A stretch of DNA of 64,000 nt from a virus: IMG/VR virus record IMGVR_UViG_3300043788_000134, positions 1 through 64,000 of that record; one strand, 5' to 3'. The notes beneath the pieces were generated by a model. It made no database searches, was not told the DNA's origin, and worked only from the letters and a program-made list of their open reading frames with translations. Of the stretch, positions 9,253-37,940 are shown piece after piece (the stretch's first letter is position 1; every line of letters starts with the position of its first letter). Made by a program: the position numbers and the translations under genes.

Positions 9253-11052
9253 TCACGCCGCCACGCCAAACGTCGCGGTTTCCAGATCGCTCACGGCAAG
9301 CCCGAACGCCGCGAATCGATCGGCCCAGTACGGCGACGTGTGCAATCGCTCGCGCAATCGCGCGATAAGCTGCACCGGCACTCTGCCGTGCAAGCGATAT
9401 TCGAGGACGCCCAAGAAATAGAGCGCAAAACCGTTTTCTGGCGAGATCACTTCCGACAGCACCGTGAGATTTTGCATCTGTTGCTTGATCTTGACCGGCC
9501 GCGTTTCGTTCAAGAGCCGCCGAAAATTCAAATGATAGTTCATGTAGAACCAGATATCGGTTATCTGCTCGCCGGTCGGAATATCGTCTGGCTTGATTTT
9601 GGCGAAGGCTTCGCGAAAGCCGAGATGCGCGAGTATCAGACCTTGTTCGATCTCGGTTTGCTTGCCGTAAGAGCCGCCGGCAAAGCGCAACTCCTTCGAT
9701 CCCACGTCCTGGATAAGACCTTGCGCCACCATCGCATCATAAATAGGCGTATTCGGGAGCGGTTGCAGAGGGCTGATTCGATACCAATCACAGTCCATCT
9801 CGCGCGCCACATTGATCGTGTCGTGGACCATGCCGAGGGTTTCATTCGGAAAGCCCACCATCAAAAGGACGGACGTGTGAATTTGCTCATGCTCGCGGAA
9901 AATTTGCGCCGCCTCGATGAAGTTTTCGAGCGTGCCTGGTTTTTTGACTTGGCGCAAGATCGTCCGGTTGCCTGATTCCATGCCGATATTAACCGCGATA
10001 CAGCCAGACTCGGCCATCGCGGCAACAAGAGCCGGCGTACACGACGACGCGATGATGCCGTTGGTGGCGTCCCAGGTGACATCGATCTTTCTGCGGACAA
10101 TCTCATTGAACATTTGCGTGGCGCGGTGCTCGTCCTTCAAAAGATCGTCATCGAGCCACATGAAGTGGCCGACGCCGTAATCGTTCACCAGCATTTCGAT
10201 TTCATCGACGACGTTCGTATAGTCGCGTTGGCGCACGCCCTTGCCGTTGAAATTCCGCACCGAGCAGAACGTGCACTGCGCGCGGCATCCGCGATTGGAC
10301 AACACCGTGGCAAAAACCGTATCCTTGGGCTTGAAGCAATAAAACGCGCCGATCGTGCCGTGCTTGGAATGTTCGGGAATGTCGAGGAGGTCGAATGCCG
10401 GGATGATCGAGATATCTTCGGGCACGCAGTCGGCCGTTAGATGGATGCGTTCGGGTTTGTTGATGATGAGTTGAGCAAGGTCGGTCACGGGACGCAGCCG
10501 ATTCACGGCTTGGACAAAGCGCGGCAACGACTCGTCGGCTTCGCGAAGGAACGCGGCGGAGACACAGGGAATGTCATCAAGCACACGCTCCACGTCGTTC
10601 GTCACATGCACGCCACCGATGGCGACAGGAGCGTAAGCCGCGGCGAAGGTGCACACGTCCTTGAGCGACTGATGACTCATGGTGAACATGCAGCCGACGC
10701 CGATCAGGTCCGGTGCGGTGTCATAGATGGCCTTGAACAAAGCCCACTTCCACGTCGCCGTGTGGTCAAAGGCCCCGCTTCCCCGCGCCGCCTTGAGCAC
10801 GATATGATTCAGGTTCAGAATCTGCATATCCACGTCGATGGCGCGAAGCTGTTGCGCCAGCAACGCCAGTCCGTAGGGAGGGTAATTGGTGTAGCGACCG
10901 CGCTTGGCGATTTCAGGACGGAACAGGTTGGCATCCGCGTCGGGGGGGTTGACCAGAAGCACGCGGCGGATTTGGCGGGCGGGAAATAGCGCAGAGAGAG
11001 CCGCGTCCACAGCGGTTGGGTCATGAGAGCGGAGTGGCGGGGATAGGGTCAT
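9253..11052 (-). CDS. B12-binding-domain radical SAM enzyme (class B-like)
   Basis: 599 aa. N-terminal RVLLVNPP...YPPYGLALLA resembles a cobalamin-binding domain. CRAQCTFC is a CxxxCxxC cluster motif. The ATG lies inside element 11015-11060. Confidence 0.8.
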   Translation of the reverse strand: MTLSPPLRSHDPTAVDAALSALFPARQIRRVLLVNPPDADANLFRPEIAKRGRYTNYPPYGLALLAQQLRAIDVDMQILNLNHIVLKAARGSGAFDHTATWKWALFKAIYDTAPDLIGVGCMFTMSHQSLKDVCTFAAAYAPVAIGGVHVTNDVERVLDDIPCVSAAFLREADESLPRFVQAVNRLRPVTDLAQLIINKPERIHLTADCVPEDISIIPAFDLLDIPEHSKHGTIGAFYCFKPKDTVFATVLSNRGCRAQCTFCSVRNFNGKGVRQRDYTNVVDEIEMLVNDYGVGHFMWLDDDLLKDEHRATQMFNEIVRRKIDVTWDATNGIIASSCTPALVAAMAESGCIAVNIGMESGNRTILRQVKKPGTLENFIEAAQIFREHEQIHTSVLLMVGFPNETLGMVHDTINVAREMDCDWYRISPLQPLPNTPIYDAMVAQGLIQDVGSKELRFAGGSYGKQTEIEQGLILAHLGFREAFAKIKPDDIPTGEQITDIWFYMNYHLNFRRLLNETRPVKIKQQMQNLTVLSEVISPENGFALYFLGVLEYRLHGRVPVQLIARLRERLHTSPYWADRFAAFGLAVSDLETATFGVAA

Positions 11053-11060
11053 CGGTCACC
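11015..11060 (-). repeat. TGACC-box intergenic element, class B1
   Basis: Reverse complement is GGTGACCGATGACCCTATCCCCGCCACTCCGCTCTCATGACCCAAC. It contains the ORF start of 9253-11052. Confidence 0.85.
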
Positions 11061-11072
11061 GTTCTATTGAGC

Positions 11073-11285
11073 TCAAACTACGCCGATGTAAGCGGCCTTA
11101 AACCGTTGATAACTATCCTCCAGTACAGCCGCATCCAGATGATCAAAGGCGTTGAACCGTAAATGGGGATATTTCTCTAGGGTTGCCTCATGGCCACATT
11201 TGCCATCCTCTGGAACGCCGCGACGCAGTTCTTCGAGGCAAAAGGGGCACACGTCGTTGAACGGATCGAACGCGGTCATTGCCAT
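11073..11285 (-). CDS. small Zn-ribbon-like protein
   Basis: ORF 11073-11417. Start ATG 11285 follows GGGGGAGG. CPFC...C.H motif. C-terminal similarity to 15655-15930 (YPHL/FPHL...Y motif). Confidence 0.5.
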   Translation of the reverse strand: MAMTAFDPFNDVCPFCLEELRRGVPEDGKCGHEATLEKYPHLRFNAFDHLDAAVLEDSYQRFKAAYIGVV

Positions 11286-11319
11286 TACTGTGCCTCCCCC
11301 TGATTTTACCATGGTCAGC

Positions 11320-11357
11320 GTTGACCGCACCGGAATCCCTGCGGTTCCGTGACCAAA
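11320..11357 (+). repeat. TGACC-box intergenic element, class A2
   Basis: GTTGACCGCACCGGAATCCCTGCGGTTCCGTGACCAAA. It ends 2 nt from the stop of 11360-12280. Antisense. Confidence 0.85.
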
Positions 11358-11359
11358 TC

Positions 11360-12280
11360 TTAATTCACCGGGAGACGTTCCGCAACACGTCCGCCGAACG
11401 ATTGCCGGAATCGCCACCGATCGATGCGTGCCACCTTGTAGGCAATAACATCAATCGACGGCGTGAATTTCGTCGCCATACCTCCGGTCGGCTTCAACGA
11501 CGCCCGCAACGGCCGAGGTTCGCTATAGACGATTTCGGAGAACGGCACCGGCTCAAACGCCATCCGGGCGCCCAACAGGCTTTGCTCTTTGACCATTTGC
11601 GCCAATTCCGCCCGCGACACCGCCGGTTGACTGACCAGATGATAAATCCGTCGCGTCACGGGCTTTGTCGCAATTTCCAATAAGCCTCTCGCCGTATCGT
11701 TCACGTCCGATACATTGAAAATATTATCCACCGCCATGCGCGCGTTCGGTTTGAGCAGCGTTTCATAGCATTGCGCCACCGGGCAGTGCTGGCCTTGGAC
11801 CCATCCCACGTTCCATCCCGTGCGCGCCACGACGCCGCGCGGCGTGCACAGCACATGACTTTCCACGGCAGCTTTCAATGCGCCGTAGACATTGAGCGGG
11901 CGTCGTGCGGTATCTTCGGAGCAATCCCCCGCTTTACCGTCAAACACCTGGTCGGTAGATAAAAACACCACCCGCGCGCCGGCGTCGTCCGCATCATCGA
12001 CGAGGTTCTTGCTGGCGTGCAGATTCAAAAGCCACGCCGCTTCCTGATTCGCGTAAATCCACGCAGGAGCGATATAGCCCGCAAGCAGCACCACCACATC
12101 GTCAGCATTCAAGTCGGGAACCACGGTGCGCAGCGACGCGGTTCGCATGTCGAACGGCACGAGGCCGTAGCGCACACGGCTTAAAGCGGTGCCAATGGCT
12201 GGTACACGCGCGGTGCGGGCCTCTTGGTGAAGCACACTGCCGATGACGCCGGAGGCACCGACGATGATGATTCGGGTCAT
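11360..12280 (-). CDS. NAD(P)-dependent sugar-nucleotide reductase/epimerase, RmlD-like
   Basis: MTRIIIVGASGVIGS Rossmann motif at the N-terminus. STDQVFDG and YGALK (YxxxK) motifs. The ATG is the ATG of the element's CATGACCC end. Confidence 0.75.
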   Translation of the reverse strand: MTRIIIVGASGVIGSVLHQEARTARVPAIGTALSRVRYGLVPFDMRTASLRTVVPDLNADDVVVLLAGYIAPAWIYANQEAAWLLNLHASKNLVDDADDAGARVVFLSTDQVFDGKAGDCSEDTARRPLNVYGALKAAVESHVLCTPRGVVARTGWNVGWVQGQHCPVAQCYETLLKPNARMAVDNIFNVSDVNDTARGLLEIATKPVTRRIYHLVSQPAVSRAELAQMVKEQSLLGARMAFEPVPFSEIVYSEPRPLRASLKPTGGMATKFTPSIDVIAYKVARIDRWRFRQSFGGRVAERLPVN

Positions 12281-12317
12281 GAGAGCGGAGCGGCGAGTGA
12301 GAGGATTATCGGTCACC
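12271..12317 (-). repeat. TGACC-box intergenic element, class B1
   Basis: Reverse complement is GGTGACCGATAATCCTCTCACTCGCCGCTCCGCTCTCATGACCCGAA. Its ATG is the start codon of 11360-12280. Confidence 0.85.
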
Positions 12318-12329
12318 GTTGCTCACAAA

Positions 12330-12575
12330 TTATTGCGGCCGACTTCGACGACAACAATCTTGCTCGGATCGACCATTTCGCTCAGCGTCTCGACGGCGTT
12401 CTTGTCCCGGTCGTACGGCTTTGATCGCCGCTTCGGCGCGTCTGCCATAGAACGCCAGATCGTGAGTGTAGGCAGCGCGGCCGATCAGGAACGAAATGAC
12501 AGAATAGATACCGCCAATGTCGCCCAAGAGGCGGCCGGTGGAAGTTCCGAGAACGGCGTGAGTTGGAAATTTCAT
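12330..12575 (-). CDS. small hypothetical phage protein
   Basis: ORF 12330-12614. ATG 12575 follows AGGAGGG. Sequence MKFPTHAVLGTSTGRLLGDIGGIYSVISFLIG... Confidence 0.5.
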   Translation of the reverse strand: MKFPTHAVLGTSTGRLLGDIGGIYSVISFLIGRAAYTHDLAFYGRRAEAAIKAVRPGQERRRDAERNGRSEQDCCRRSRPQ

Positions 12576-12603
12576 AGCTTCCCTCCTATTACAAACAACC
12601 GCG

Positions 12604-12642
12604 GTTGACCGCACCGTAATCCCGGCCTCTCGTGATCCAAAG
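12604..12642 (+). repeat. TGACC-box intergenic element, class A1
   Basis: GTTGACCGCACCGTAATCCCGGCCTCTCGTGATCCAAAG. It ends 1 nt from the stop of 12644-13594. Antisense. Confidence 0.9.
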
Positions 12643-12643
12643 A

Positions 12644-14439: not shown

Positions 14440-14478
14440 GTTTGGGTCACGAGAGGCCGGGATTACGGTGCGGTCAAC
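14440..14478 (-). repeat. TGACC-box intergenic element, class A1
   Basis: Reverse complement is GTTGACCGCACCGTAATCCCGGCCTCTCGTGACCCAAAC. It lies 16 nt upstream of ATG 14424. It is a near-perfect inverted copy of 12604-12642. Confidence 0.9.
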
Positions 14479-15421
14479 CGGCGTAAGCGCGAGGAAACGA
14501 AACAATCGTATTCGACGGCGACAGCGCCTCGCGGAACGCGCTCGCTTGCGCCTTGTCCATCCCAAAATCGTCGAGCAGATGCGGAATCATGTCGATGGCG
14601 CGCTGCTTGATGCGCAGATAGCGCTCGTCTTTCGGATTAAGCCCGGACATCATGTCGAGTTGCCGCGACTGGGCCCGCACGGTGTCGTTGACCCACTTGG
14701 AACGGTATTCGATCAGCGGATGATGCCGCAGCAGAATGTCCTTATGCCATTGCGGCGTATTGAAGTCAGGATCATTGATGATCTTGTGCGCTTCGGCGCG
14801 GCGCTTGAGATAAGCCGCATCGAACCACGTCGCCCACCAGCCCGGCTCGCGCATTTCCATGGTTTTGCCGGCACCGGATTGGTCTGTCCCCACATCGGCA
14901 AACGAAATACGCCCGATCATTCGCCCCACGTCGTCGGTCCAATGGTCGGCAAACCAATACGGGAAATATTCCGGCTGCAGCTTGTTGTCGTTTTTCTCCG
15001 CCCATTTTGCGGTATAGGCGATCACGCTCGGAAACGAAGCGTTTGCCATCCGGCCATAGACAATGCCGATGCCGTCAGGAAAACGTAACGCGGCCTCCAG
15101 CAGCAATTCGTCGGTATTCGGCGTGATATAAACGTCATCGTCGGACGCATTGAGGTAAAGATCGCCAGGCTCCGACAATCCGCGATTCCATTTTCCGGCT
15201 ACGGTATCGTCGCGCTTTTTGACGTTGATCGTAATGCGCGGATCGAGCTTGCCTTCGTCGTATGCCGCGCCAAGCATCGCCACCGTAGCGAAGTCGTCCG
15301 AATCACACTGCACGATGACCTTGGTATCCGCCCGCGAAAAGCACGCCATGTGGCGCGGCAGCGTCCCCATCAACTGTTGCGCACGATTGCGCGTCGCCAC
15401 GCTTACAACAAGTCGCGCCAT
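14474..15421 (-). CDS. glycosyltransferase family 2-like protein
   Basis: 315 aa. N-terminal LVVSVATRNR strand and NASDDDVY acidic motif are typical of the GT-A fold. Confidence 0.55.
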   Translation of the reverse strand: MARLVVSVATRNRAQQLMGTLPRHMACFSRADTKVIVQCDSDDFATVAMLGAAYDEGKLDPRITINVKKRDDTVAGKWNRGLSEPGDLYLNASDDDVYITPNTDELLLEAALRFPDGIGIVYGRMANASFPSVIAYTAKWAEKNDNKLQPEYFPYWFADHWTDDVGRMIGRISFADVGTDQSGAGKTMEMREPGWWATWFDAAYLKRRAEAHKIINDPDFNTPQWHKDILLRHHPLIEYRSKWVNDTVRAQSRQLDMMSGLNPKDERYLRIKQRAIDMIPHLLDDFGMDKAQASAFREALSPSNTIVSFPRAYAG

Positions 15422-19380: not shown

Positions 19381-19422
19381 CACTGGATCACGAGAGACAG
19401 GGATTACGGTGCGGTCACCAAC
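19381..19422 (-). repeat. TGACC-box intergenic element, class A
   Basis: Reverse complement is GTTGGTGACCGCACCGTAATCCCTGTCTCTCGTGATCCAGTG. Sense to 19155-19373. Confidence 0.85.
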
Positions 19423-20728: not shown

Positions 20729-20974
20729 TCAGGTGACCGATTCCGGTCTCTCAACCGCCCAAAACTCGCGTGACACAAGAGGCACCGCGCCGGCCGCGTC
20801 CATCTCGGCAACAATCTCTTGGTGTGTCGCCTCGCGCCATTGAAGCGGTGGAAACGCTCGCAGACCGTTTGGGGTAAAGAACGCCTTGCCGACCTTGCGG
20901 TATGGCACCCATTCATCGTGGATTTTGCCCATCGCATTACACTTGCGCAAGTAGTTCGATTGCTCCGGCGTCAC
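20729..20974 (-). CDS. hypothetical protein
   Basis: ORF track. The GTG start overlaps the portal stop (GTGA). The 3' end reads through element 20732-20779. Confidence 0.5.
   Translation of the reverse strand: MTPEQSNYLRKCNAMGKIHDEWVPYRKVGKAFFTPNGLRAFPPLQWREATHQEIVAEMDAAGAVPLVSREFWAVERPESVT
20732..20779 (+). repeat. TGACC-box intergenic element, class B2
   Basis: GGTGACCGATTCCGGTCTCTCAACCGCCCAAAACTCGCGTGACACAAG. Its left half is almost identical to copy 30501-30548. Antisense. Confidence 0.8.
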
Positions 20975-23190
20975 GAGCTACCTCCATTTCCACCGCCCGA
21001 ATCAGCCGTCGCGGGAGGCTGCAACGCTTGATGCACATTCAAGGCATGTTCCGCAAGGTCCATCTGGCGGTCATGCACGCCTTGCACAGCCTCCAAACCA
21101 GCGGTCTTTTGCGCGTTCGCGGCGTCCGCCTTGTGGATAACCATTTCCTTGGCAAGATTGACCGTAGCTATATTCTGTTCGGTGGCGAGTTCGGCCTGTT
21201 TGATTTGGTTTTCCTGCTGCGCATTTTGCGCATCTGCTTGCGCCTTTTGCGCGCCCGTCGTGGCCTGGGTCATCTTCGCCTCCGCGGCGATCAATTGCGG
21301 ATTCGGCTGCGGCGCGGCGGCAGGCGGTGCCTGGATCAATCCCGCCGGGTCTTCGCGAATCACCGCCAAGATGCGCTGCAAGGTTTCGGTCGGATTCATG
21401 ATCGGCGTGAATGCGGGAATAGCGATCAATTGCGCGAGCGCCACGCCTTTTGCCACACGATGAATGTGCGACGGCGTATTGGGATCGGAGCGCGGCACCA
21501 AGTTACAATCGTTTAGCGCCTGCAAGAACTTTTGCTCGTTCCAAAAATCCTTGCCGCAAATCTTATTGGACTTCCAGAAGTCCTCCGGGTTTTGTTTGAA
21601 CAATTCGACAATCAATTCGATTTCCTCGGCCTGGGCCTGGTGCATGCCTTTGAACGCCGCCGACATGACCTTGGTTGCCTGCTCGATCTGCGCCATCATC
21701 GTGCCGACCGGGACGTTTTGAATGCCCTCCGCCGTCGGGGTATCGGCCACGCCGCCGACGGCTTGGGCTTGCGACGTAATCTTGTCGATCAGCGCAAGAA
21801 GGCCCGGCGTCACGTCCTTGTAGGGCAAGCCCTGAATCACTTGATTGATCGGCTGTCCATTCGTCTCGATCGGCATGAACGTGCCTGCGGCCAAGCGAAA
21901 GTCCGATGTGTTTTGTCGCCCTCCCAGTTTTGAAATCACCCCCGACGGAAAATTCGCATACATGCCGGCGTCAAGCGCCTCGCGCCACGCCGCGGTCATC
22001 GCCATTGACGAGTTACCCAGAATATTCAGCATCCCCGTGCCGTAGAATCCAGGTCCAGGCACATACGGATATTTGACGTACATCCGCTTGCGCTCGCACT
22101 CGTCGTCATCCTCTTTCCAGTCGCGGCGAATCGCAAGAATCTCTTTGGAATCCTTGTCCATCGTTACGATATAGGGCAGCGGAATACCTTCGTCCTTGAA
22201 CTTGCCGGGCGCGTACTGACGCAGATCAAGCTCGCACTGCGTTTCCCACAAATTGTACGGCTGGTCTTCCGGCCGCCTCTGATTCGTTTGCGTACCTTGC
22301 TGCTGTTCTATTTGCTCATTGACGGCATTAGGCGCCGCCGCCATCGGCTGCGGTAACGACACATCGCGATAGGCGCCGAGCAATTGCATGCGTTTCATGA
22401 CCGAAGGACGCATCTGAATTTCGTGCGTGATGCGCGAGCACGAGCGCAAATCCTTGATGGTGTCAGAGACGATCAAATCCTTCGCATCGACGCTTTCCGA
22501 AACTGGCCGCCGGCGCATCGGGCAGCGGTAGACTTTCTTAAATCCCGATCCTCCAAAATAGGTACCCCACAACAGCATGTGCGACGTGTCGGGATAATAT
22601 TCCGACGCCGTCGTCGTCAGATAATAATTCATGTCGCGCTCGAACGCTTCGGCCAGTTCATCTTCGCCCTGCGTATCGGCACCGTCGTTGCCATCGTCGG
22701 CTATTTTAACTGGACCTTCGGACGGCAACAGTTCGGCTTGCGCGTTTGCCCATCCCTTCAAAACCGCTTCAAGCAACAGCGGATTGGTGACCGTCGAAAG
22801 TCCTTCGACTGCCGCAGACGTATCGGCCGCGTTCGCGCGCGGTTCCTTGATCTCCAGTCCGAGCAGTTCGATGCCGCGGGCACGGATGGCAAGATAATTG
22901 GCGCGCGATTGATTGTCGGCATTGACCTGGTCCCAAAGTTCGACAGAAATTTTGCCGAGTTCAATGGCTGGTATTCGTTCGGCGAGATTTTCGTAAAATG
23001 GATCGTCGTCCGCGTCTGTTGCTTTGGGACGCCGCGCGTCCAACTGCACGATCACGCCACCATCGTCGGCCGGACTTGTGACGGTGCCGGTCACGGGATC
23101 GACGCTCTCCACGTTGTCGTCATCGTCAATGACGACGGAAACGCCTGAGACTCCCGCGGCGTCAGCCATGGAAGTCACTTTCGGCATCAC
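20971..23190 (-). CDS. portal protein
   Basis: About 740 aa, located a few small genes downstream of the terminase. Q/A-rich C-terminus. The earliest plausible start is the GTG at 23190 inside element 23180-23228 (alternative ATG at 23169). Confidence 0.7.
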   Translation of the reverse strand: MMPKVTSMADAAGVSGVSVVIDDDDNVESVDPVTGTVTSPADDGGVIVQLDARRPKATDADDDPFYENLAERIPAIELGKISVELWDQVNADNQSRANYLAIRARGIELLGLEIKEPRANAADTSAAVEGLSTVTNPLLLEAVLKGWANAQAELLPSEGPVKIADDGNDGADTQGEDELAEAFERDMNYYLTTTASEYYPDTSHMLLWGTYFGGSGFKKVYRCPMRRRPVSESVDAKDLIVSDTIKDLRSCSRITHEIQMRPSVMKRMQLLGAYRDVSLPQPMAAAPNAVNEQIEQQQGTQTNQRRPEDQPYNLWETQCELDLRQYAPGKFKDEGIPLPYIVTMDKDSKEILAIRRDWKEDDDECERKRMYVKYPYVPGPGFYGTGMLNILGNSSMAMTAAWREALDAGMYANFPSGVISKLGGRQNTSDFRLAAGTFMPIETNGQPINQVIQGLPYKDVTPGLLALIDKITSQAQAVGGVADTPTAEGIQNVPVGTMMAQIEQATKVMSAAFKGMHQAQAEEIELIVELFKQNPEDFWKSNKICGKDFWNEQKFLQALNDCNLVPRSDPNTPSHIHRVAKGVALAQLIAIPAFTPIMNPTETLQRILAVIREDPAGLIQAPPAAAPQPNPQLIAAEAKMTQATTGAQKAQADAQNAQQENQIKQAELATEQNIATVNLAKEMVIHKADAANAQKTAGLEAVQGVHDRQMDLAEHALNVHQALQPPATADSGGGNGGSS

Positions 23191-23228
23191 GAGAGGTTGT
23201 GCCGTTTGCAGCACCGGATTCGGTCACC
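23180..23228 (-). repeat. TGACC-box intergenic element, class B2
   Basis: Reverse complement is GGTGACCGAATCCGGTGCTGCAAACGGCACAACCTCTCGTGATGCCGAA. Sense to the portal gene. Back-to-back with 23244-23283. Confidence 0.85.
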
Positions 23229-23243
23229 GTTACTCCGCGCGAC

Positions 23244-23283
23244 GTTGACCGTACCGTAATCGCTCCGCTCTCGTGATCCAAAG
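23244..23283 (+). repeat. TGACC-box intergenic element, class A
   Basis: GTTGACCGTACCGTAATCGCTCCGCTCTCGTGATCCAAAG. Its end abuts the stop of 23284-23463. Antisense. Confidence 0.85.
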
Positions 23284-27500: not shown

Positions 27501-27781
27501 TCCCCGCCCCTGCAGACCGGCGCCGCAGCTGCGCCGAGCCACACCGCGCCCTCCGGCGTGCGCCATTCGTGCCACGGGTTGGCGTGCGGCGGCATTACGG
27601 TGATTCGCATCATGCCGCAGAAATAGCAGGATTTAATGTTGCGGGCGTTGCCGTCGATCGCGTCGCAGGCAGCGATTCGCTTTTCGTTGTCGTGATCCCA
27701 CCGGTGGGAGCGCGCCATCGCCGGGATGATTGTGGGAAGGTCGTTGGAGGGGAGGAGTGTTTGAGTCATTGTGTGGGTCAC
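27497..27781 (-). CDS. hypothetical Cys/His-containing protein
   Basis: ORF track. Its GTG start is the GTG of element 27771-27810. An in-frame ATG lies 12 nt later. Confidence 0.5.
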   Translation of the reverse strand: MTHTMTQTLLPSNDLPTIIPAMARSHRWDHDNEKRIAACDAIDGNARNIKSCYFCGMMRITVMPPHANPWHEWRTPEGAVWLGAAAAPVCRGGE

Positions 27782-27810
27782 GAGAGGGAAGCGATTACGG
27801 TGCGGTCAAC
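27771..27810 (-). repeat. TGACC-box intergenic element, class A
   Basis: Reverse complement is GTTGACCGCACCGTAATCGCTTCCCTCTCGTGACCCACAC. Sense to 27497-27781. Confidence 0.85.
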
Positions 27811-27831
27811 CTTTGTTTGTTTGGTCGCCAT

Positions 27832-28399: not shown

Positions 28400-28690
28400 T
28401 TATGGCGTGAGTAGATTGCAGCGTTGGGTCATGCGAGCGGAGTGTGTGACGAGAGAATCATCGGTCACCGTCTCGCTTTGCACAGTCGCGGTTGACCGCA
28501 CCGTACCCACATATCCCTCGTGACCCAACTCTTTCTTCACGGCTTGGTCTAACTCCTTCCGCCACCGCATCACCCGCTCTCCCGCCGCAACGATAGTAGC
28601 ATGGCGCCCTTCGTAGCTCTTGGCGAATGCAACAAACAAATAATCAAACGACGCCTTTTCAAGCTCACGCTCGGCCTCTTGACGCCACAT
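28400..28690 (-). CDS. hypothetical protein; 3' end reads through two elements
   Basis: ORF 28400-28702 (MWRQEAERELEKASF...). The last ~45 codons are the translation of elements 28492-28530 and 28424-28470. Confidence 0.45.
   Translation of the reverse strand: MWRQEAERELEKASFDYLFVAFAKSYEGRHATIVAAGERVMRWRKELDQAVKKELGHEGYVGTVRSTATVQSETVTDDSLVTHSARMTQRCNLLTP
28424..28470 (-). repeat. TGACC-box intergenic element, class B1
   Basis: Reverse complement is GGTGACCGATGATTCTCTCGTCACACACTCCGCTCGCATGACCCAAC. Sense to 28098-28382. Confidence 0.85.
28492..28530 (+). repeat. TGACC-box intergenic element, class A (divergent middle)
   Basis: GTTGACCGCACCGTACCCACATATCCCTCGTGACCCAAC. Back-to-back with 28424-28470. 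Confidence 0.8.
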
Positions 28691-30268: not shown

Positions 30269-30510
30269 GATTGCCCCTCCAAAAGCTTGCCGAGGGCGGA
30301 CTGGGGCAGCGGCGGGTCGCCGAATAGCACCATGGCGCGGGTGAGAGGAACCGATTCGCGGCGCGCACGGTCGGCTAGAACTTCGGGAGGAGGTGGTTCT
30401 TGGGGGGTGGAACGGAGGAAATCGGGGGGGATATAGCGGTGTTGGGCGTTGACGCGGGCGCGATGTAACCGGCGCCGTTCGGCGGCTATGGCGGGAGGAA
30501 GCGGCATCAC
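30265..30510 (-). CDS. hypothetical protein
   Basis: ORF 30265-30522. Starts at GTG-ATG inside element 30501-30548 (VMPLPPAIAAERRRL...). Confidence 0.5.
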   Translation of the reverse strand: MMPLPPAIAAERRRLHRARVNAQHRYIPPDFLRSTPQEPPPPEVLADRARRESVPLTRAMVLFGDPPLPQSALGKLLEGQS

Positions 30511-30548
30511 GAGAGGCCCCACCGGCTGAGAGACCGGAATCGGTCACC
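30501..30548 (-). repeat. TGACC-box intergenic element, class B2
   Basis: Reverse complement is GGTGACCGATTCCGGTCTCTCAGCCGGTGGGGCCTCTCGTGATGCCGC. It contains the start of 30265-30510. Confidence 0.85.
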
Positions 30549-30565
30549 GTTGCGTCGGTACAGCA

Positions 30566-30912: not shown

Positions 30913-31272
30913 ATGGACCCCACCGAACACGATCCGGCACGCGAAGCTGCCGACGATTTCAAGGAACTCGCCCCGATGGGCAATTCTCCTGTCGCGCCGG
31001 CCCATGTTGTGGCCTCTATCGCCCTCAATATGGCGATGAAATACCACGACATGAGTATCGTGAAAGACGGCGCGCTTTACCAGCAATACAAGCTTGAAGG
31101 CAGGAATATCCGCACAATCGGTCTCGATGATATTTTTGCCGACGCCGTGAGGATCGAAGCATGGCTTCTCGGTTCGTCTGATCGTATCGCTAAACTCATT
31201 GTCGATGCCATCAACGACGGTCCCGAGGGCGACGAGTCATCCGGCGATTCGACTCCATCGGCCGAAGGTTGA
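30913..31272 (+). CDS. hypothetical early protein
   Basis: ORF track, 119 aa. GGGAG RBS. First plus-strand gene opposite the repressor. Confidence 0.55.
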   Translation: MDPTEHDPAREAADDFKELAPMGNSPVAPAHVVASIALNMAMKYHDMSIVKDGALYQQYKLEGRNIRTIGLDDIFADAVRIEAWLLGSSDRIAKLIVDAINDGPEGDESSGDSTPSAEG

Positions 31273-31307
31273 CCGCACCGTAATCACTCCGCCATCGTGA
31301 CCCAAAG
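31268..31307 (+). repeat. TGACC-box intergenic element, class A
   Basis: GTTGACCGCACCGTAATCACTCCGCCATCGTGACCCAAAG, followed by GGAG and ATG 31318. Sense. Confidence 0.85.
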
Positions 31308-31746: not shown

Positions 31747-31747
31747 C

Positions 31748-31787
31748 CTTTGTGTCACGAAGCCGCAGGGATTCCGGTGCGGTCAAC
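31748..31787 (-). repeat. TGACC-box intergenic element, class A2
   Basis: Reverse complement is GTTGACCGCACCGGAATCCCTGCGGCTTCGTGACACAAAG. It starts 1 nt after the stop at 31746. Antisense. Confidence 0.85.
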
Positions 31788-31814
31788 CGAGGTTGTTTGT
31801 AATAGGAGCCGAGA

Positions 31815-32044: not shown

Positions 32045-32236
32045 ATGAAACAACTTCATCCATTTTTATGCGGCATGATCGTTTTTTTGTTACTGTTATA
32101 TTTAGGGTGGATGCTTGCCAAGCTTCCTTCCCCGGCAGAAGATTTGCTTCATGCGCTTGTGTACGCCACGGCGGCTTGTGCGGTTGTTGCGTTAATTATT
32201 TTTTTGTCACTTTATACCTTTCGGAAAACAAAATAG
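32045..32236 (+). CDS. small membrane protein
   Basis: ORF 31991-32236. ATG 32045 (MKQLHPFLCGMIVFLLLLYLGWML...). Two hydrophobic helices. Confidence 0.5.
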   Translation: MKQLHPFLCGMIVFLLLLYLGWMLAKLPSPAEDLLHALVYATAACAVVALIIFLSLYTFRKTK

Positions 32237-32282
32237 GGTGACCGATGACCCTCTCCCCCTCACTCCCCTCTCGTGATCCAAC
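32237..32282 (+). repeat. TGACC-box intergenic element, class B1
   Basis: GGTGACCGATGACCCTCTCCCCCTCACTCCCCTCTCGTGATCCAAC. Its GTG at 32273 opens the long ORF 32273-33214. Confidence 0.85.
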
Positions 32283-32413: not shown

Positions 32414-33214
32414 ATGCTTGAACAGAAATATACGCGCGCCGAGCAGGAAATGGCAGAACGCGACGCCTACCCCGACCGCTTTGCTACTGCAGGCCACAAC
32501 AATCCGCCTAACGCCATCGACTCCGCCCAGGAAGCGATGGCTGAGCTTGCCAAGTTTGCCGAGGACAATCCCGCCATTCAGTCTTTCGCCGAGGCCAAGC
32601 TTTACGCCGGCATGATCGAGCGCACGCGCGTTGCCATGCAGGATTTGGAGAACGAGCGCGAGCCGCAAGTGCGCCCGCTCAATGCGGCGCTTAAGGCCAT
32701 CAACGACCGCTATCGCTTGGTGCGCCAGCCCCTGGAGAAGCTTTACGATCTGGTCAAGGCGCGTCTGACCAAATACAACAACGCGGTGGAAGCGGCGCGT
32801 TTGAAGGAAGCGCAGCGGTTGCGCGAGGAAGCCGAAGCGGCCGAGCGCGCAGCCCGCAAAGCCGAAGCGCGTGAGAAAGATGCTATGGCGTGTGCCGACG
32901 TGGGCGAATGTACCGATGTTGGCGGCGCCATCGCGCAAGCCGACGTGGCATTCAAGGGCTATCAGAAAGCCGACCGCGCCGCGGCAACCGCCGAGCGCAA
33001 CGTGCCGGTGCGGATTGCGAGCGTCATGGGCGGCAAAAGCCTCTCCATGCGAACGACCGAAGTCTTTATCGTGGAGGATGCCTGTGCCGCCATTACCGCA
33101 ATGGGACTATCCGAAGCTGCGCGCCAACAGCTTATTAAGGACGCAAAGCGATTCCGCGAAGCTACTGGCGAACTGCCGGAAGGTATCACGTCGCGCTTTG
33201 AGCGGAGTTTTTAG
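32414..33214 (+). CDS. coiled-coil protein of unknown function
   Basis: ORF 32273-33214. ATG 32414 follows AGGAAGG (MLEQKYTRAEQE...). The alternative start is the in-frame GTG at 32273 in the element. Confidence 0.6.
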   Translation: MLEQKYTRAEQEMAERDAYPDRFATAGHNNPPNAIDSAQEAMAELAKFAEDNPAIQSFAEAKLYAGMIERTRVAMQDLENEREPQVRPLNAALKAINDRYRLVRQPLEKLYDLVKARLTKYNNAVEAARLKEAQRLREEAEAAERAARKAEAREKDAMACADVGECTDVGGAIAQADVAFKGYQKADRAAATAERNVPVRIASVMGGKSLSMRTTEVFIVEDACAAITAMGLSEAARQQLIKDAKRFREATGELPEGITSRFERSF

Positions 33215-33250
33215 GGGTCACGGAACCGCAGGGATTACGGTGCGGTCAAC
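33211..33250 (-). repeat. TGACC-box intergenic element, class A2
   Basis: Reverse complement is GTTGACCGCACCGTAATCCCTGCGGTTCCGTGACCCCTAA. It overlaps the stop codon of 32414-33214. Antisense. Confidence 0.85.
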
Positions 33251-33286
33251 CACGTCGGAACGAGCAAACATCGGAAGTGGACGTAA

Positions 33287-33499: not shown

Positions 33500-33580
33500 T
33501 TTAACCATCGCTGGCGCGGATTTGGCGCAGCGATTTATATACCGTGCGCCTCGGCGGTTCTCAGGGGCAGGAGAAACGAA

Positions 33581-33870: not shown

Positions 33871-33880
<10 letters not shown>
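33581..33880 (+). CDS. hypothetical protein
   Basis: ORF track, 99 aa. GTG start after CAGGAG. Confidence 0.55.
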
Positions 33881-34566
<686 letters not shown>

Positions 34567-34586
34567 TCCTTTTATTGCAGCGAAAC

Positions 34587-34635
34587 GTTGACCGAATCCG
34601 GTAACGCCAACGGCACAACCTATCGTGATCCAGAG
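34587..34635 (+). repeat. TGACC-box intergenic element, class B2
   Basis: GTTGACCGAATCCGGTAACGCCAACGGCACAACCTATCGTGATCCAGAG, followed by a duplicated terminal motif AATGATCCAAAGGGAG and ATG 34660. Confidence 0.85.
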
Positions 34636-34659
34636 AATGATCCAAAGGGAGCACCAACC

Positions 34660-35091
34660 ATGACACAGACCGCAACCATTGAAGTGAAGCACGTCTATCC
34701 CCCGAAAGACGGCAAACAGTACGGTGCGATCCGCGGTGCCAACAACGATTCCTATCCGGTCAAGAAAGACCGCATCCACGAATTTATGCCGGGCAACCGC
34801 TACGAGATCGCATGGACCGAGGGCAATAACGGCTTCAAGAACATCATCGGCGTCAAGCCGCTCAATGTGCCGGCGCCGCAAGCGCAAGGAACATTTTCCG
34901 CCATTCCGCCGCAGACCAACGGCCACGCTCATGCGGCCACTCAAGTTTCCAAGTCGGAAGAAATCTTCGTCTGCGGCGGTCTCTATCGCGACATCGAAAG
35001 CAATCGCGTCGGCGCATCGGAAGATGAACTTGTCGAGCGCACGATTTTGTGGCGTAACGTGTGGCGTCGTGCGTTTATGGATGCGGTGTGA
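34660..35091 (+). CDS. hypothetical protein (bracketed by inverted elements)
   Basis: ORF 34588-35091. ATG 34660 follows AAGGGAG (MTQTATIEVKHVYPPKDGKQYG...). Confidence 0.6.
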   Translation: MTQTATIEVKHVYPPKDGKQYGAIRGANNDSYPVKKDRIHEFMPGNRYEIAWTEGNNGFKNIIGVKPLNVPAPQAQGTFSAIPPQTNGHAHAATQVSKSEEIFVCGGLYRDIESNRVGASEDELVERTILWRNVWRRAFMDAV

Positions 35092-35168: not shown

Positions 35169-35207
35169 GATGGGTCACGAGAGGGGAGGGATTACGGTGC
35201 GGTCAAC
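35169..35207 (-). repeat. TGACC-box intergenic element, class A
   Basis: Reverse complement is GTTGACCGCACCGTAATCCCTCCCCTCTCGTGACCCATC. Antisense, 78 nt after the stop at 35091. Confidence 0.85.
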
Positions 35208-35229
35208 GGATCATCTTAAAGACCGCTGA

Positions 35230-35840: not shown

Positions 35841-35931
35841 TGGACAAACAACGGTGACCGCGTATTTATCCCTTCACAGCATTTAAAGGTTGTGGTAGTG
35901 GGTAAGTGCGGTCTCGCTAGGAGATCGCTAA

Positions 35932-36975
35932 ATGCGCGAATGTACAGGTTGGTACAACTTAGACCATTTAAATTGGGTCTACGAAATCGAGGCCGCGGAG
36001 GCAGGGATGCGCGTTTCAGACAAGGTTCTGAAATGTGTGGTTTTCATTGGCGTTGAGAAGCCGGGTGGCTTCGAGCCAGTGGGGACCGGCTTCGTTGTAA
36101 TGGTGCCGCAAGGACAGGTTGGCTTCCAATACGTCGTGACAGCGCAGCATGTGCTTGATGGCCTCAGAGAGCCAATTTCAATCCGCGTCAATAGAAAGAA
36201 CGGCGAAGCCGAGCCCATCAAGCCACCATTTGGATGGTATTACCATCCAGATAACAGTCGCTTTGTTGATGTTGCTGTCGCGCCAATTCTCCTGCAATTG
36301 GATACGTATGACGTTATCCACATTAAGATGAAGGATTTTTGTGATTTGCAGTTTTTGCTTGAACGTGACGTCGGAGTTGGAGACGAACTTTTTTATCCGA
36401 GTCTTTTTATGCACCGTCGCGGATTACACAGAAACCATCCAGTTATGCGGTTTGGTGAACTTGCAGCGATGCCGTTAGAGCCGGTCATAACAAGGTCAGG
36501 ACCTATTTTGGCATACCTAATGGAAGGTCGCTCTATCGGGGGCCATAGCGGCGCGCCGGTTTTTATCAATTTTCTAGCACCCCGCACCTATTATTCAGAT
36601 CAGGTTGTACAGCTTCCACATCCCAATCAGGCGCAAGGCTACCGATTACTGGGGCTGATTCGCGGCTTTCTAAAAGCGAAGGATACGGGCGAGTACATAA
36701 CCGATGATCCGAAAGCAGAAGATTTGTGGATAAACTCTGGAATCTCAACTATCATTCCAACGTCAGAGATTTTTGAAACACTCATGCAGGATGATCTTGT
36801 GCAGCAACGAAACGAACACGCAAAGAGAGTTATAGACGGTCTCGCCGACGTACCAGCAAGTGCGCGTCCCGCAAGCGATTCGAAGCCTTTGGACGGCGAC
36901 GCCAATCCCAATCACCTAGCGGATTTCACACGTCTTGTAGACGTGGCAGCCCGAAAGCGGCCACAAGACGATTAA
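35932..36975 (+). CDS. trypsin-like (S1/Trypsin_2-type) serine protease, IS passenger
   Basis: The 347-aa ORF lies inside the IS. VVTAQHV (His), a later Asp, and GGHSGAPVF (GxSGxP Ser motif). The start may be the internal ATG at 36007. Confidence 0.65.
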   Translation: MRECTGWYNLDHLNWVYEIEAAEAGMRVSDKVLKCVVFIGVEKPGGFEPVGTGFVVMVPQGQVGFQYVVTAQHVLDGLREPISIRVNRKNGEAEPIKPPFGWYYHPDNSRFVDVAVAPILLQLDTYDVIHIKMKDFCDLQFLLERDVGVGDELFYPSLFMHRRGLHRNHPVMRFGELAAMPLEPVITRSGPILAYLMEGRSIGGHSGAPVFINFLAPRTYYSDQVVQLPHPNQAQGYRLLGLIRGFLKAKDTGEYITDDPKAEDLWINSGISTIIPTSEIFETLMQDDLVQQRNEHAKRVIDGLADVPASARPASDSKPLDGDANPNHLADFTRLVDVAARKRPQDD

Positions 36976-37822
36976 ACATCGCTTCATGTGAATTGCGGTA
37001 GTTGCGTCGATAGGTGAACTCGGCGACGTATTTCCACATGTGTTTCGCCGAAATATGGACGTGAGTGCCGCGTACTGCGCGCTTGAAATGTCCCCACTGT
37101 CCTTCAATCGTATTCGTGTGGTGGACGCCAGCAACCCATTGCTTCTTGCTGTGGTTGACGCGGCCAAGATCGAAGCCGTGCTTTAGATCGTTGTAGGAAT
37201 CCCATTCATCCGCCGTGAGGCGAGTGCCTTCCTTGACGTGGCCACGCACGATGGACTCCAATGTGTCTTGCGAAAGGTTCGGAATCGGGCCAGCGCGCAT
37301 TTTGCCGTCCCGTTCCACCATCCCGAACACAAGGCTCTTGTTCGATCCTTTAGTGCGGCGCTCGCGGTTGCTCTGATAACCGCCCATAACCGTTTCGTCG
37401 ATTTCAACGTGCTTGCCATCGCCACCGAGAGGGCCGCCAAAGTCGGCCGACGCCATCAGCTTCCGCAGTTCGTGGCACATCCGCCAAGCGCACTTATAGG
37501 TCACGCCTAGCTGCCTCTGGACCTCCGCAGCGGCCACGCCATGGCGGGTGCTGGTCATGAGGTACATCGCGAAAAACCACTTGGTGAGGTTCGTGCGGCT
37601 CTTGTGGAAGATCGTACCGGCAGCCGGGTAAATGTGGTGGCCGCAATGCTGGCACACGAACGCCCGGCGCTTGGCGAGGGGATGGAATTTCGAATCGGCG
37701 CCGCAGCCCGGGCAGGTGATTTCGGTCCCGCCGTAGTTCACCTCCATCAATTTACGGAGGCAGGCCGCGTCGTCCGGGTAAATCGCCTGGAAGGCCTTAA
37801 AAGTGTGGGTTCCTGGCTTCAT
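36926..37822 (-). CDS. IS1595-family (ISXO2-like DDE) transposase
   Basis: 298 aa. N-terminal Zn-ribbon CPGCG...CQHCG. C-terminal NTIEGQWGHFKR...HISAKHMWKYVAEFTYRRNYR is typical of the family. Confidence 0.85.
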   Translation of the reverse strand: MKPGTHTFKAFQAIYPDDAACLRKLMEVNYGGTEITCPGCGADSKFHPLAKRRAFVCQHCGHHIYPAAGTIFHKSRTNLTKWFFAMYLMTSTRHGVAAAEVQRQLGVTYKCAWRMCHELRKLMASADFGGPLGGDGKHVEIDETVMGGYQSNRERRTKGSNKSLVFGMVERDGKMRAGPIPNLSQDTLESIVRGHVKEGTRLTADEWDSYNDLKHGFDLGRVNHSKKQWVAGVHHTNTIEGQWGHFKRAVRGTHVHISAKHMWKYVAEFTYRRNYRNSHEAMFNRLVAAFGLPRLQDV

Positions 37823-37893
37823 GACTATCCCCTACCCTCGATTGTGGGGATACCCTATCAACCCTTATAAATGCTGTCAAGGGATAAATACGC

Positions 37894-37940
37894 GGTGACC
37901 GATGATCCCCTCAGCAATCGCTCCGCGCAGATGACCCAAC
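37894..37940 (+). repeat. TGACC-box intergenic element, class B1 (IS inserted at its GGTGACC end)
   Basis: GGTGACCGATGATCCCCTCAGCAATCGCTCCGCGCAGATGACCCAAC. The duplicated GGTGACC at 35853-35859 is the other half of the target site. Confidence 0.85.

Follow-up and report, generated by a model that had tools for sequence, protein, structure and literature searches.

In T4-like phages, the association of PeSL promoter-terminator cassettes with insertions is secondary, as that of a repeat lying between phage genes would be if it were a protein-binding site. Regarding codon placement, the overlap of a start and a stop codon as GTGA is a classic signature of translational coupling, and not of a transcript 5' end. 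Both points bear on the element present in the window (the whole 64,000-nt stretch of viral DNA that was analysed), for which the best explanation, held with moderate confidence, is a portable gene-junction repeat that bounds accessory cassettes and is carried by phages, with start and stop overlaps resulting from tight packing and triplet reuse.

A two-block repeat family

Searches with nhmmer profiles recover 28 copies of the element, G[GT]TGACCG plus CTCTC[GA]TGAYCCAAAG, in the window. These two blocks, A and B respectively, are common to every copy and are separated by a class-specific spacer, which defines three length classes (35-36, 43-44 or 45-46 nt overall, in a repeat of 35-50 bp). 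The repeat family is genuine and not due to chance, with 16 matches to CTTTGGRTCACGAG at up to two mismatches in the window versus 0.85 expected from shuffles. Copies are termed sense when GKTGACCG -> CTCTCRTGAYCC runs along local transcription, and ANTI when it runs in reverse; 16 are sense and 12 ANTI in the window, and about 62% are sense across all loci. One strand of the element provides a TGA in block A, TAA, TGA or TAG in classes 1 and 2, and RTGA in block B, and the opposite strand of GTG-type copies is free of stop codons. The copies are listed below by window coordinates and strand.

5765..5812 (+): class 2, ANTI to the local (-) genes, nhmmer E=3.6e-10; TAG stop of 5813-6244 adjoins the GGTTGGGTCATGAG end; GGAGA and ATG 5742 of the next gene, 22 nt past the other end
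9202..9253 (-): class 3, sense, E=7e-13; first bases overlapped by the stop TGA (9253) of the B12 radical-SAM gene; ~160 nt to the next gene
9190..9203 (-): partial tandem duplicate of the block B end (CGTGATCCAAAA), immediately after copy 9202-9253
11015..11062 (-): class 2, sense, E=1.5e-10; ATG 11052 within block A
11319..11357 (+): class 1, ANTI; RmlD stop TAA (11360) 2 nt from the TTTGG end; GGGGGAGG and ATG after the other end
12271..12319 (-): class 2, sense; holds the RmlD start codon (ATG 12280, MTRIIIVGASG)
12603..12642 (+): class 1, ANTI; stop TAG at 12644, 1 nt from the CTTTGG end; AGGAGGG and ATG ~27 nt past the GGTCAAC end
14441..14479 (-): class 1, sense; TGA of GTTGACC is the stop of 14474-15421; next gene from ATG 14424, in another frame and 26 nt beyond GTGA
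19383..19419 (-): class 1, sense; TAA of CGTAATC is the stop of the upstream ORF; next ATG 19373
20732..20778 (+): class 2/3, ANTI; ORF 20729-20974 runs through (..VSREFWAVERPESVT and stop), then TGGAG and ATG 20712
23181..23230 (-): class 3, sense, upstream of the portal gene; terminates in GTGATGCC (GTG 23190)
23243..23283 (+): class 1, ANTI, back-to-back with 23181-23230; stop TGA (23284-23286) adjoins the CTTTGG end
27773..27811 (-): class 1, sense; GTG 27781 and ATG 27769 both in frame with a 94-aa ORF, neither with a Shine-Dalgarno sequence (SD); a 17-codon mini-ORF terminates at the TGA of its GTGA
28423..28471 (-): class 2, sense; next gene with GAGGAA and ATG 28382, 50 nt downstream
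28490..28528 (+): class 1, ANTI, back-to-back with 28423-28471; ORF 28400-28702 reads through both copies
30504..30550 (-): class 2/3, sense, head of the leftward operon; an 81-aa ORF opens at GTG 30510 and ATG 30507, its stop overlapping the ATG of the DUF1937 gene
31267..31307 (+): class 1, sense; TGA of GTTGACC is the stop of 30913-31272
31749..31788 (-): class 1, ANTI; stop TAG (31746) 2 nt from the TTTGTG end; then AGGAG and GTG 31815
32235..32282 (+): class 2, sense; upstream stop TAG overlaps the first base
33213..33251 (-): class 1, ANTI, left end of a 1.4-kb insertion unit; stop TAG (33212-33214) overlaps the copy
34585..34635 (+): class 3, sense, right end of the 1.4-kb unit, paired with 33213..33251; duplicated end (AATGATCCAAAG, 34636-34647), then GGGAG and ATG 34660
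35170..35208 (-): class 1, ANTI, 80 nt after the stop of 34660-35091; then TGAGGA and ATG 35230
35849..35860 (+): left fragment (CAACGGTGACCG) of a class 2 copy split by an IS1595-family element, with CGGTGACCG as a 9-bp direct repeat on both sides of the IS
37893..37940 (+): class 2, sense; holds ATG 37931 (MTQPKPQ) of the HNH/DUF968-like gene
49274..49312 (-): class 1, at the convergent junction of + and - gene blocks, 5 nt after the stop of 49317-49835
53791..53841 (-): class 3, sense, one end of a 2.2-kb unit, after a terminator-like hairpin and T run; next ATG 53752 (+49)
55919..55965 (+): class 2, ANTI, other end of the 2.2-kb unit; ORF 55894-57441 reads through; shares the private motif ACTATCCACA with 53791..53841
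62276..62315 (+): class 1, ANTI; stop TAG (62319) 3 nt from the CTTTGG end
62735..62773 (-): class 1, sense, with GTA instead of GTG; next gene ATG 62723
62771..62822 (+): class 3, ANTI, adjoining 62735-62773 at GGTCAAC/GTTGACC; stop TAG (62823) adjoins the CTTTGG end

Stop and start codons at the element

The first-pass annotation had placed the stop codon of the upstream gene 0-3 nt from the CTTTGG end, and this is indeed seen at 5813, 11360, 12644, 23284, 31746, 62319 and 62823, together with the reported overlap at 33214. Eight of the 12 ANTI copies follow this rule; at 20732, 28490 and 55919 an ORF reads through instead, and at 35170 the nearest stop is 80 nt away. At the opposite end of the element, the upstream stop may be the TGA of GTTGACC (14474, 31272) or the TAA of CGTAATC (19383 copy), and upstream stops abut or overlap the element at 9253 and 32236.

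Start codons had likewise been assigned to the element, and here the outcome differs from gene to gene. Some genes do start at the element's RTG. For RmlD, the assigned ATG 12280 is borne out by the alignment of Pfam profile position 0/1 there; its sole alternative, GTG 12316, also lies within the element, and position 2 of the RmlD_sub_bind profile corresponds to residue 15 of the ORF opened by it. Two cases in relatives strongly support starts of this kind: in L018 all possible starts of the small-terminase gene fall within the element, and in L010 the element GTG is the sole available start for a conserved 73-aa protein, which L044 and L011 also have. ATG 37931 is plausible for the HNH-like gene, whose L010 orthologue (MKPTHPQ, starting 23 nt after a class 1 copy) has an N-terminus equal in length to that of the window gene, and 30507/30510 and 27769/27781 are plausible candidates as well. 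The radical-SAM gene 9253-11052 has three candidate starts, ATG 11052, GTG 11010 and GTG 10962. In contrast, the proposed portal start, GTG 23190, is ruled out by the conserved start at ATG 23169, 21 nt downstream, which corresponds to the ATG GCT GAC (M-A-D) with which ~40 relatives begin, in many of them immediately after a stop codon. Downstream of the 31267 and 32235 copies, GTG 31297 and GTG 32273 are in frame as described, but the likely starts are AAGGGAG with ATG 31318 and AGGAAGG with ATG 32414, respectively, and the first 47 codons from GTG 32273 score as non-coding.

Taken over all copies, the true start lies 0-160 nt from GTGA (median near 21), downstream genes frequently carry their own SD, and orthologous genes in relatives have normal starts without the element. 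Start codons at the RTG are not enriched: among the 16 sense copies, 7 have it in frame with a coding ORF and no stop in between, versus about one third expected, which is not significant, and no enrichment appears over all loci (~46% versus 33%). The apparent precision of stop and start placement can be attributed to tight packing, in which the spacer consists of the element plus a ribosome-binding site. The element sits at cassette boundaries, as had been claimed, but, given copies in both orientations, starts 0-160 nt away, ORF read-through and element-free orthologues, does not define them as a rule.

Gain, loss and replacement of element-bounded units among related phages

Position at cassette boundaries is supported by comparison with related phages, among which insertions and replacements start and stop at element ends, with block B facing outward in the inserted units. 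These units are gained, lost or replaced. Two genes that lie 5 nt apart in L055 are separated in L044 by an insertion placed exactly between stop and start and made up of an ANTI copy, 145 nt and a sense copy; the junction equivalent to 33213-34635 reads TGAcATG in L011, with adjacent flanking genes and no element, and is occupied in the window by two ORFs between an ANTI and a sense copy. A further difference, between L020 and L044, is a 179-nt gene that begins at the GGTCACC end of the element and has GCGGTCACC and GCGGTTACC on its two sides. Between L018 and L055, insertions or replacements of at least 100 nt occur at 9 of 10 element-bearing junctions, and one homology block restarts exactly at the element's first base in both genomes. 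This link between element and breakpoint is partly circular, since insertions cluster in intergenic DNA anyway. The 2.2-kb unit 53791-55965 contains a second IS1595-family transposase gene (54374-55270).

The repeat is also present in an unrelated phage lineage, L005, whose portal is P22-like and whose proteins show no similarity to those of the window. The family is absent from ~0.95 Mb of metagenome relatives and from the more distant IMG/VR relatives (more distant relatives without it amounting to ~1.4 Mb altogether), and a GTDB scan gave 2 matches, both at chance level.

In the portable-repeat explanation, the gap between one gene and the next is taken up by a single copy or by an inverted pair whose B blocks face outward, and such pairs enclose small accessory ORFs or nothing. 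Copies may act as homology patches, or as sites for a putative recombinase or transposase, at which cassettes would be exchanged, and selection would retain only insertions flush between genes. Tight packing of the genome leads neighbouring genes to reuse triplets of the element: its TGA, TAA, TAG and RTGA let upstream genes end in or just before it, and its RTGA lets downstream genes start at the RTG or a few bases later. Genes starting in the element would be translated by ordinary coupling or re-initiation. Against mobility, filled and empty sites display no target-site duplication, and no mobilising enzyme for the element was identified. Moreover, the copy at 19383 has an orthologue in four relatives (L018, L055, L044 and L020) with an identical CCCTGT spacer, nearly unchanged in phages with just 66% portal identity, which points to a selected function beyond mobility, for instance as a regulatory site. 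Sense copies also recur before the same orthologues despite a change of class, namely the HNH-like gene, the gene at 34660 (L010 has a class 3 copy at the junction equivalent to 34585..34635) and the first leftward gene.

Regulatory and RNA-level readings

The conserved 19383 copy and its spacer would also suit a protein-binding site (a phage-specific promoter, operator or roadblock) with two blocks contacted on one helix face, a somewhat unlikely reading that nevertheless accounts for the invariant blocks around a variable spacer, for the difference of ~10 bp, or one helical turn, between class 1 and class 3 spacing, and for single copies, which form no hairpin and are less structured than shuffled sequence, as a DNA site would be. 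The excess of sense copies agrees with it, as do the sense copy heading the leftward (late) operon in the window and at the equivalent place in L010, L044 and L011, and those after terminator-like hairpins at 53791 and 32235. However, ~40% of the copies are wrongly oriented for a promoter, a sigma-70 scan of the element gives background level, a sigma-70-like -35/-10 being present in neither orientation, and neither an RNA polymerase nor a sigma factor was recognised among the window genes. Copies also lie within coding sequence, for instance in the N-terminal part of the small terminase of L055 and L044 and at the C-terminal end of three ORFs of the window, and these core genes are expressed in relatives that have neither the element nor a substitute repeat family. 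The proposal of the first-pass annotation, that the element gives the downstream gene its start codon and a leaderless 5' end and marks the upstream stop, has little probability. It draws on the real or only starts for RmlD, the L018 small terminase and the 73-aa protein, on the plausible ones at 30507, 27781 and 37931, on the stops adjoining the same end in most ANTI copies, and on the fact that starts inside the element have no SD, but SD is also absent from ~63% of element-free genes genome-wide. Most downstream starts lie 9-160 nt further, including those of the portal gene and of the genes after 31267 and 32235, in-frame RTG is not enriched, and no TANNNT precedes the element RTG. Furthermore, the GTG start of the 73-aa gene in L010 overlaps the upstream stop as GTGA, which indicates coupling inside a polycistronic mRNA. 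Nothing found supports leaderless transcripts.

Finally, inverted copies might act as RNA, pairing locally back to back or at a distance on both sides of a gene, with the paired 12-45 bp stems being cut by RNase III or insulating genes and thereby setting mRNA ends near start and stop codons, which is improbable. Back-to-back pairs do form imperfect hairpins of 90-120 nt that bring the upstream stop and the downstream start together at their base (23181-23230 with 23243..23283, 105 nt, z = -3.4; 28423-28471 with 28490..28528, z = -3.5; one pair in L044, z = -2.3), 62735-62773 and 62771..62822 compose an 88-bp imperfect palindrome, and gene-flanking copies are complementary (14441 versus 12603, 98% over 40 nt; 31267 versus 31749, 86% over 42 nt). 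On the other hand, partners frequently differ in class and then pair over only 12-16 bp, the fold of one pair does not surpass that of shuffled sequence (z = -1.4), a partner is lacking in the vicinity of many copies, and the element has no match in Rfam. Strong alternation of orientation between neighbouring copies, found in 22 of 27 pairs in the window (p=0.0008), favours both this reading and the portable repeat, and its absence in relatives (~56%) counts against both. ANTI->sense intervals in the window, with a median of ~365 nt, are shorter than sense->ANTI ones (~1360 nt, p=0.044), which also favours the portable repeat.

Structure and distribution of the element

The window covers nearly all of the genome of a tailed phage that has not been cultured (the source contig measures 69.9 kb) and encodes a terminase, a portal, a Mu gpT-like head protein, a tail-fibre chaperone domain, an integrase and a DNA methyltransferase, with genes running leftward from 1 to 30.6 kb, rightward from 30.9 to 49.2 kb and leftward thereafter. 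Its gene junctions carry a bipartite element of 35-50 bp, in mixed orientation. A search with CTTTGGRTCACGAG, allowing at most 2 mismatches, gave 16 matches in the window against 0.85 expected, and profiles built from the copies bring the number to 28, about one copy per 2.3 kb. Two blocks are common to all copies, block A (G[GT]TGACCG) and block B (CTCTC[GA]TGAYCCA(A)AG), and the copies fall into three length classes:

Class 1: 35-36 nt; GKTGACCGCACCGTAATC, 6-9 variable nt and block B
Class 2: 43-44 nt; GGTGACCGAT[GA][AG]..., with block B usually containing ATG
Class 3: 45-46 nt; GKTGACCGARTCCGG, about 15 variable nt and block B

Copies that read from block A to block B along local transcription are referred to here as sense, and the opposite ones as ANTI. 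The window has 16 sense and 12 ANTI copies, and about 62% of the copies in all loci are sense. Within the window, core genes occupy the intervals from a sense to an ANTI copy; those from an ANTI to a sense copy are short and either contain small ORFs or are empty. After two class 3 copies, the final 12 nt of block B are repeated in tandem (9190-9203 and 34636-34647), as CGTGACCCAAAG followed by CGTGATCCAAAA and CGTGATCCAGAG followed by AATGATCCAAAG. ANTI class 3 copies are translated in one common frame (..SREG...P[DE]SV[NT]..) in three unrelated proteins (window 20732-20778; 6190-6236, 6618-6664 and 13991-14041 of the loci L055, L044 and L005, respectively), which may be due to chance (three independent cases, p about 0.1).

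Among other phages, the element occurs in the closest relatives, L018, L019, L020, L044, L054 and L055 (portals 63-69% identical), in L010 and L011, both of which share synteny with the early region of the window, in L016 and L017, and in L005, which has a P22-like portal, a different terminase and no protein similarity to the window. IMG/VR relatives whose portals are 51-60% identical have neither the element nor a substitute repeat family, and it is absent from 80 metagenome relatives (0.95 Mb in total, portal identity at most 60%), which came from a scan aimed at closer relatives, to catch recent insertions. An origin as a host-genome repeat was rejected on a scan of GTDB (one genome per species, class 1 pattern), which returned two chance-level matches. 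The window DNA matched none of the cultured phages, the best portal match among cultured relatives being 46.5% identical; neither an exact look-up of the terminase nor a related-locus search with the 32273 protein gave a match. This pattern of presence and absence indicates that the element is carried by phages, is confined to certain clades and has crossed lineages.

Junctions compared between relatives

Relatives aligned at the same junction show the element to be a portable junction repeat, found at the bounds of accessory cassettes. Upstream of the GT2-like glycosyltransferase gene, L055 has a stop codon, 5 nt and an ATG; in L044, an ANTI class 3 copy and a sense class 1 copy, 145 nt apart, are placed precisely between this stop and this ATG, and in L018 a 57-aa ORF stops at the TGA of block B, with the ATG directly after. 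After the large terminase gene, no copy is present in L055; a single ANTI copy in L044 touches both the stop and the ATG, and in L018 and L020 the copy is accompanied by a further small gene. In L020 this gene measures 179 nt, has the flanks GCGGTCACC and GCGGTTACC and is exactly what sets this junction apart from that of L044, the two phages being about 90% identical in DNA. At the junction of the 32414 and 34660 genes, L011 reads TGAcATG, L010 has a small ORF stopping at the TGA of block A and a sense copy, and in the window two ORFs lie between an ANTI copy and a sense copy. Between L018 and L055, insertions or replacements of at least 100 nt are found at nine of the ten element-bearing junctions, and in both genomes one homology block restarts at the element's first base.

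From these comparisons, the unit that comes and goes has an ANTI copy at one end and a sense copy at the other, with block B pointing outward in both, and it is because of this arrangement that stops adjoin one CTTTGG end while starts adjoin or enter the other. No cargo genes common to different junctions were found. The 19383 copy (copies are named by their start in the window) is orthologous and almost unchanged in four relatives, which means that some copies are old and probably under selection. Within the structural block, the enzyme genes at 9253-15421 (-), for a B12-binding radical-SAM protein, an RmlD-like reductase, a radical-SAM/SPASM protein and the GT2-like glycosyltransferase, are parted by copies of the element, and the cluster is mostly missing in L018, L055 and L044.

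Stop and start codons at the element

Neighbouring genes reuse the NTG and TGA triplets of the element. For stops, the first-pass annotation had named eight sites at which the upstream gene ends at the CTTTGG end, and all of them hold, amounting to 8 of the 12 ANTI copies; ORFs read through three others (20732, 28490 and 55919), and the copy at 35170 lies 80 nt from a stop. The opposite end is also crowded by stops: the TGA of GTTGACC terminates both 14474-15421 and 30913-31272, an ORF takes its TAA stop from the CGTAATC of the 19383 copy, and stops adjoin block A at 9253 and 32236. In the unrelated phage L005, block A provides the upstream stop in all three sense copies.

The same annotation had placed several start codons inside the element, and this was borne out for some genes and not for others. 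Every candidate start of the RmlD-like gene lies inside a copy, with ATG 12280 fitting the Pfam N-terminus, and ATG 37931 of the HNH/DUF968-like gene is supported by the L010 orthologue, whose N-terminus is equal in length. Starts within the element at 30507/30510 and 27769/27781 are plausible. For the portal gene, the proposed GTG 23190 has to be given up, as does GTG 23214, from which the longest ORF begins: both lie upstream of ATG 23169, which corresponds to the ATG GCT GAC with which about 40 relatives begin, many of them with a stop codon directly upstream. The genes after copies 31267 and 32235 also start outside the element, at ATG 31318 and ATG 32414, each preceded by a Shine-Dalgarno (SD) sequence, and in the second case the first 47 codons look non-coding. 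Gene callers will misplace starts near copies, the portal being an example.

The idea of the element as a start is right in kind, as the L010 and L018 cases make clear. In L010, the GTG of the element is the sole possible start of a 73-aa protein conserved in L010, L044 and L011, and it overlaps the stop of the upstream gene as GTGA, which is a hallmark of translational coupling in a polycistronic message and not of a leaderless transcript. In L018, all possible starts of the small terminase gene fall inside a class 1 copy. The start of this gene in the window (26476-26503, -), where the N-terminus MDAVTEPENLDK is encoded by GTAACCGAGCCGGAA..CTCGATAAA, looks like a decayed class 1 copy at the place where L018 has the intact one, and the small-terminase N-terminus of L055 and L044 includes a translated ANTI class 3 copy.

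Overall, start codons lie 0-160 nt past the GTGA (median near 21), and those at least 18 nt from it often have their own SD. Since about 63% of element-free genes also score as lacking an SD in the same crude test, this lack is not special to genes started by the element. Enrichment of in-frame RTG was not significant. The idea that GTGATCC replaces an SD by pairing with the 3' end of 16S rRNA was discarded: such a match is limited to the GATCC variants of the window, and the complementarity is probably due to chance, as relatives have GACAC or GAAAC. A coupling relay from the KTGA of block A to the RTGA of block B was also set aside, the phase not being constant and class 3 45-mers being out of phase.

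Mechanism and likeness to known systems

The reading that we favour, and whose chances we consider about even, is that of a portable junction repeat at the bounds of accessory cassettes, with exchange by recombination and coupled translation. Exchange would take place through recombination at the copies, either homologous or via some enzyme, and genes starting at the RTG would be translated by coupling. The main rival, which we regard as rather unlikely, is a protein-binding regulatory site; the conserved bipartite form, the 10-bp step in spacing and the recurrence upstream of the same genes would all follow from it, but it fits poorly with the mixed orientation and with the copies within coding sequence. 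ECF-sigma or Caulobacter-type promoter spacing, as well as likeness to IHF sites, dif/Xer sites, boxA or the tRNA T-arm, did not fit when compared by eye with the consensus sequences. The leaderless mRNAs suggested by the first-pass annotation would account for starts at the RTG, but appear very unlikely, as the TANNNT -10 motif expected about 6-8 nt before the RTG is absent, the bases there being C/T-rich (..C(T/C)CTC) in every class, and the GTGA overlap in L010 fits coupling. A sigma-70 promoter scan of the window yielded 8 sites where 8.8 were expected, all outside the elements, and the best manual match, TTGGRT-N17-TACGGT, is limited to class 1 and scores 6 of 12; intrinsic terminators in the window are at background level.

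A model of RNA pairing and RNase III is improbable to a similar degree. Back-to-back pairs (23181-23283 and 28423-28528 among them) fold into 90-120 nt hairpins, and folding is limited to such pairs: single copies fold no better than shuffled sequences, with mostly positive z-scores, on which a hairpin, REP or ribozyme identity was rejected. REP/BIME elements, imperfect palindromes that form a hairpin and abound in host chromosomes, were dismissed both on the missing hairpin and on the two chance-level matches in the GTDB genomes. The Rfam search of the window found nothing at the element, and its only match was the following gene, which is the sole Rfam or ARAGORN match in the window:

47882-47957 (+), tRNA-Arg(TCT)

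The repeats might alternatively be the ends of phage-borne 'plug-in' cassettes moved by a shared recombinase or transposase, which we consider quite improbable. Units with inverted copies could slot precisely into the stop/start junctions of genes under translational coupling. Each block of the element would bring its own NTGA stop/start-overlap motif, so that the upstream gene would still stop and re-initiation of the downstream gene would stay possible, even at the RTG of the element. A putative recombinase or transposase common to unrelated phages of the same hosts could move such units. A transposase gene was considered separately as a lead. The unit from 55965 to 53791, both ends of which have one private 10-nt motif, holds the second IS1595-family transposase gene of the window (54374-55270, -, Pfam E=6e-30). 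This gene lacks terminal repeats that belong to it alone, and its product shares 30% identity with the transposase of an obvious insertion sequence (IS), flanked by the 9-bp direct repeat CGGTGACCG:

35849-37904, IS1595-family IS with 50-nt inverted ends, inserted in block A of a class 2 copy
36926-37822 (-), transposase of this IS
35932-36975 (+), 347-aa ORF in this IS, function not assigned

The elements are probably not the terminal repeats of the 54374-55270 transposase, as L143-L146, four loci from a phage-like contig and bacterial contigs with three homologous transposases (59-61% identity), have neither the element nor similar terminal repeats. No close relatives of this transposase were found in viral contigs; homologues at 55-64% identity are common in soil Proteobacteria (e.g., Xanthobacteraceae, Beijerinckiaceae and Steroidobacteraceae), which may be a weak hint at the host. 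As for a target-site duplication, no consistent direct repeat was found at four pairs or between filled and empty sites. A tyrosine recombinase is encoded at 42213-43163.

Regarding known systems, the promoter-early stem-loop (PeSL) cassettes of T4-type phages combine strong sigma-70 promoters with terminator stem-loops, all co-oriented with transcription (PMC2839356, PMC4122927). Like them, the element is a short conserved intergenic repeat at which insertions, deletions and replacements occur between related phages, and PeSLs are likewise proposed drivers of the modular shuffling of small accessory genes; unlike them, it has no sigma-70 motif and no single-copy hairpin, occurs in both orientations and overlaps starts and stops. 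By analogy, it would work most like PeSL cassettes (PMC2839356), minus promoter and terminator. The start-associated sequences (SAS/ESAS) known from Cluster K mycobacteriophages are a 13-bp motif with the SD core AGGAG, located 3-7 bp upstream of the start codon and almost always in a single orientation (PMC3203893). They share with the element being phage-specific, absent from host genomes, tied to gene starts and able to contain upstream stops, whereas the element is 35-50 bp long, lacks an SD core (there is no GGAG on the sense strand of its consensus), lies 0-160 nt from the start and occurs in both orientations. In Cluster A mycobacteriophages, the immunity repressor binds to stoperators, 13-mers whose orientation strictly follows transcription (PMC9283540). 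Stoperators and the element alike are asymmetric sites in short intergenic spaces, often beside starts or stops, but the element is longer, bipartite and of mixed orientation, and no cognate repressor was recognised.

In MITEs and other small mobile elements of phages and bacteria, such as the MPMEs of mycobacteriophages, inverted terminal copies bound short units present in many copies. The element resembles them in its inverted terminal copies, in units with or without passenger ORFs, in its high copy number, in its spread across lineages and in its varying presence at orthologous sites, as observed for inverted-copy units between L044 and L055, the window and L011, and L018 and L055; it differs in that there is no target-site duplication, single half-elements are common and the homologues of the IS1595-like gene elsewhere lack the element. 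Integron attC sites have RYYYAAC/GTTRRRY core sites at the ends of an imperfect palindrome. As in integrons, cassette bounds lie within a few bases of the start codon, stops often fall in the conserved end of the site and ORFs have no leader of their own, but GGTCAAC and GTTGACC are each one base off the consensus and lie at the inner, not the outer, ends of pairs, single copies are not palindromic, both orientations occur and no IntI-type integrase was seen. On these likenesses, we would file the element as a phage intergenic repeat at mosaic boundaries.

The origin of phage genome mosaicism has long been a question in the field. The proposal of conserved 'linker' sequences at module boundaries is decades old, and to our knowledge few such sequences have been documented. 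The element bears on this question in that it forms the exact edges of gained or lost gene blocks, is common to unrelated phages and supplies start triplets to essential genes, an example being the small terminase gene of a relative. If mobile or recombination-promoting, it would be a concrete, testable vehicle of cassette exchange.

Other repeats and signals were observed in the window. In the divergent control region, 30816-30860 (+) holds what is likely the extended -10 promoter of the rightward operon, TGTGATAAT, adjoined by a partial motif like block B, CGGTGGATCACGAA. Small early genes carry, at or near their starts, a distinct 28-nt repeat, GCGCGGTCATCCGCAGTGAATGAGGGAA (+), that is unrelated to the main element family (39480-39507, 39756-39783 and 40875-40902), and short tandem or dispersed GGCCCGCTTTT units occupy 27059-27209 (+ strand coordinates). 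Finally, about 20 tandem units of 12 or 18 nt (GGCTACGGCGAC...) at 33880-34280, in the ORF 33718-34566, encode a Gly/Tyr/Ser/Asp-rich repeat protein.
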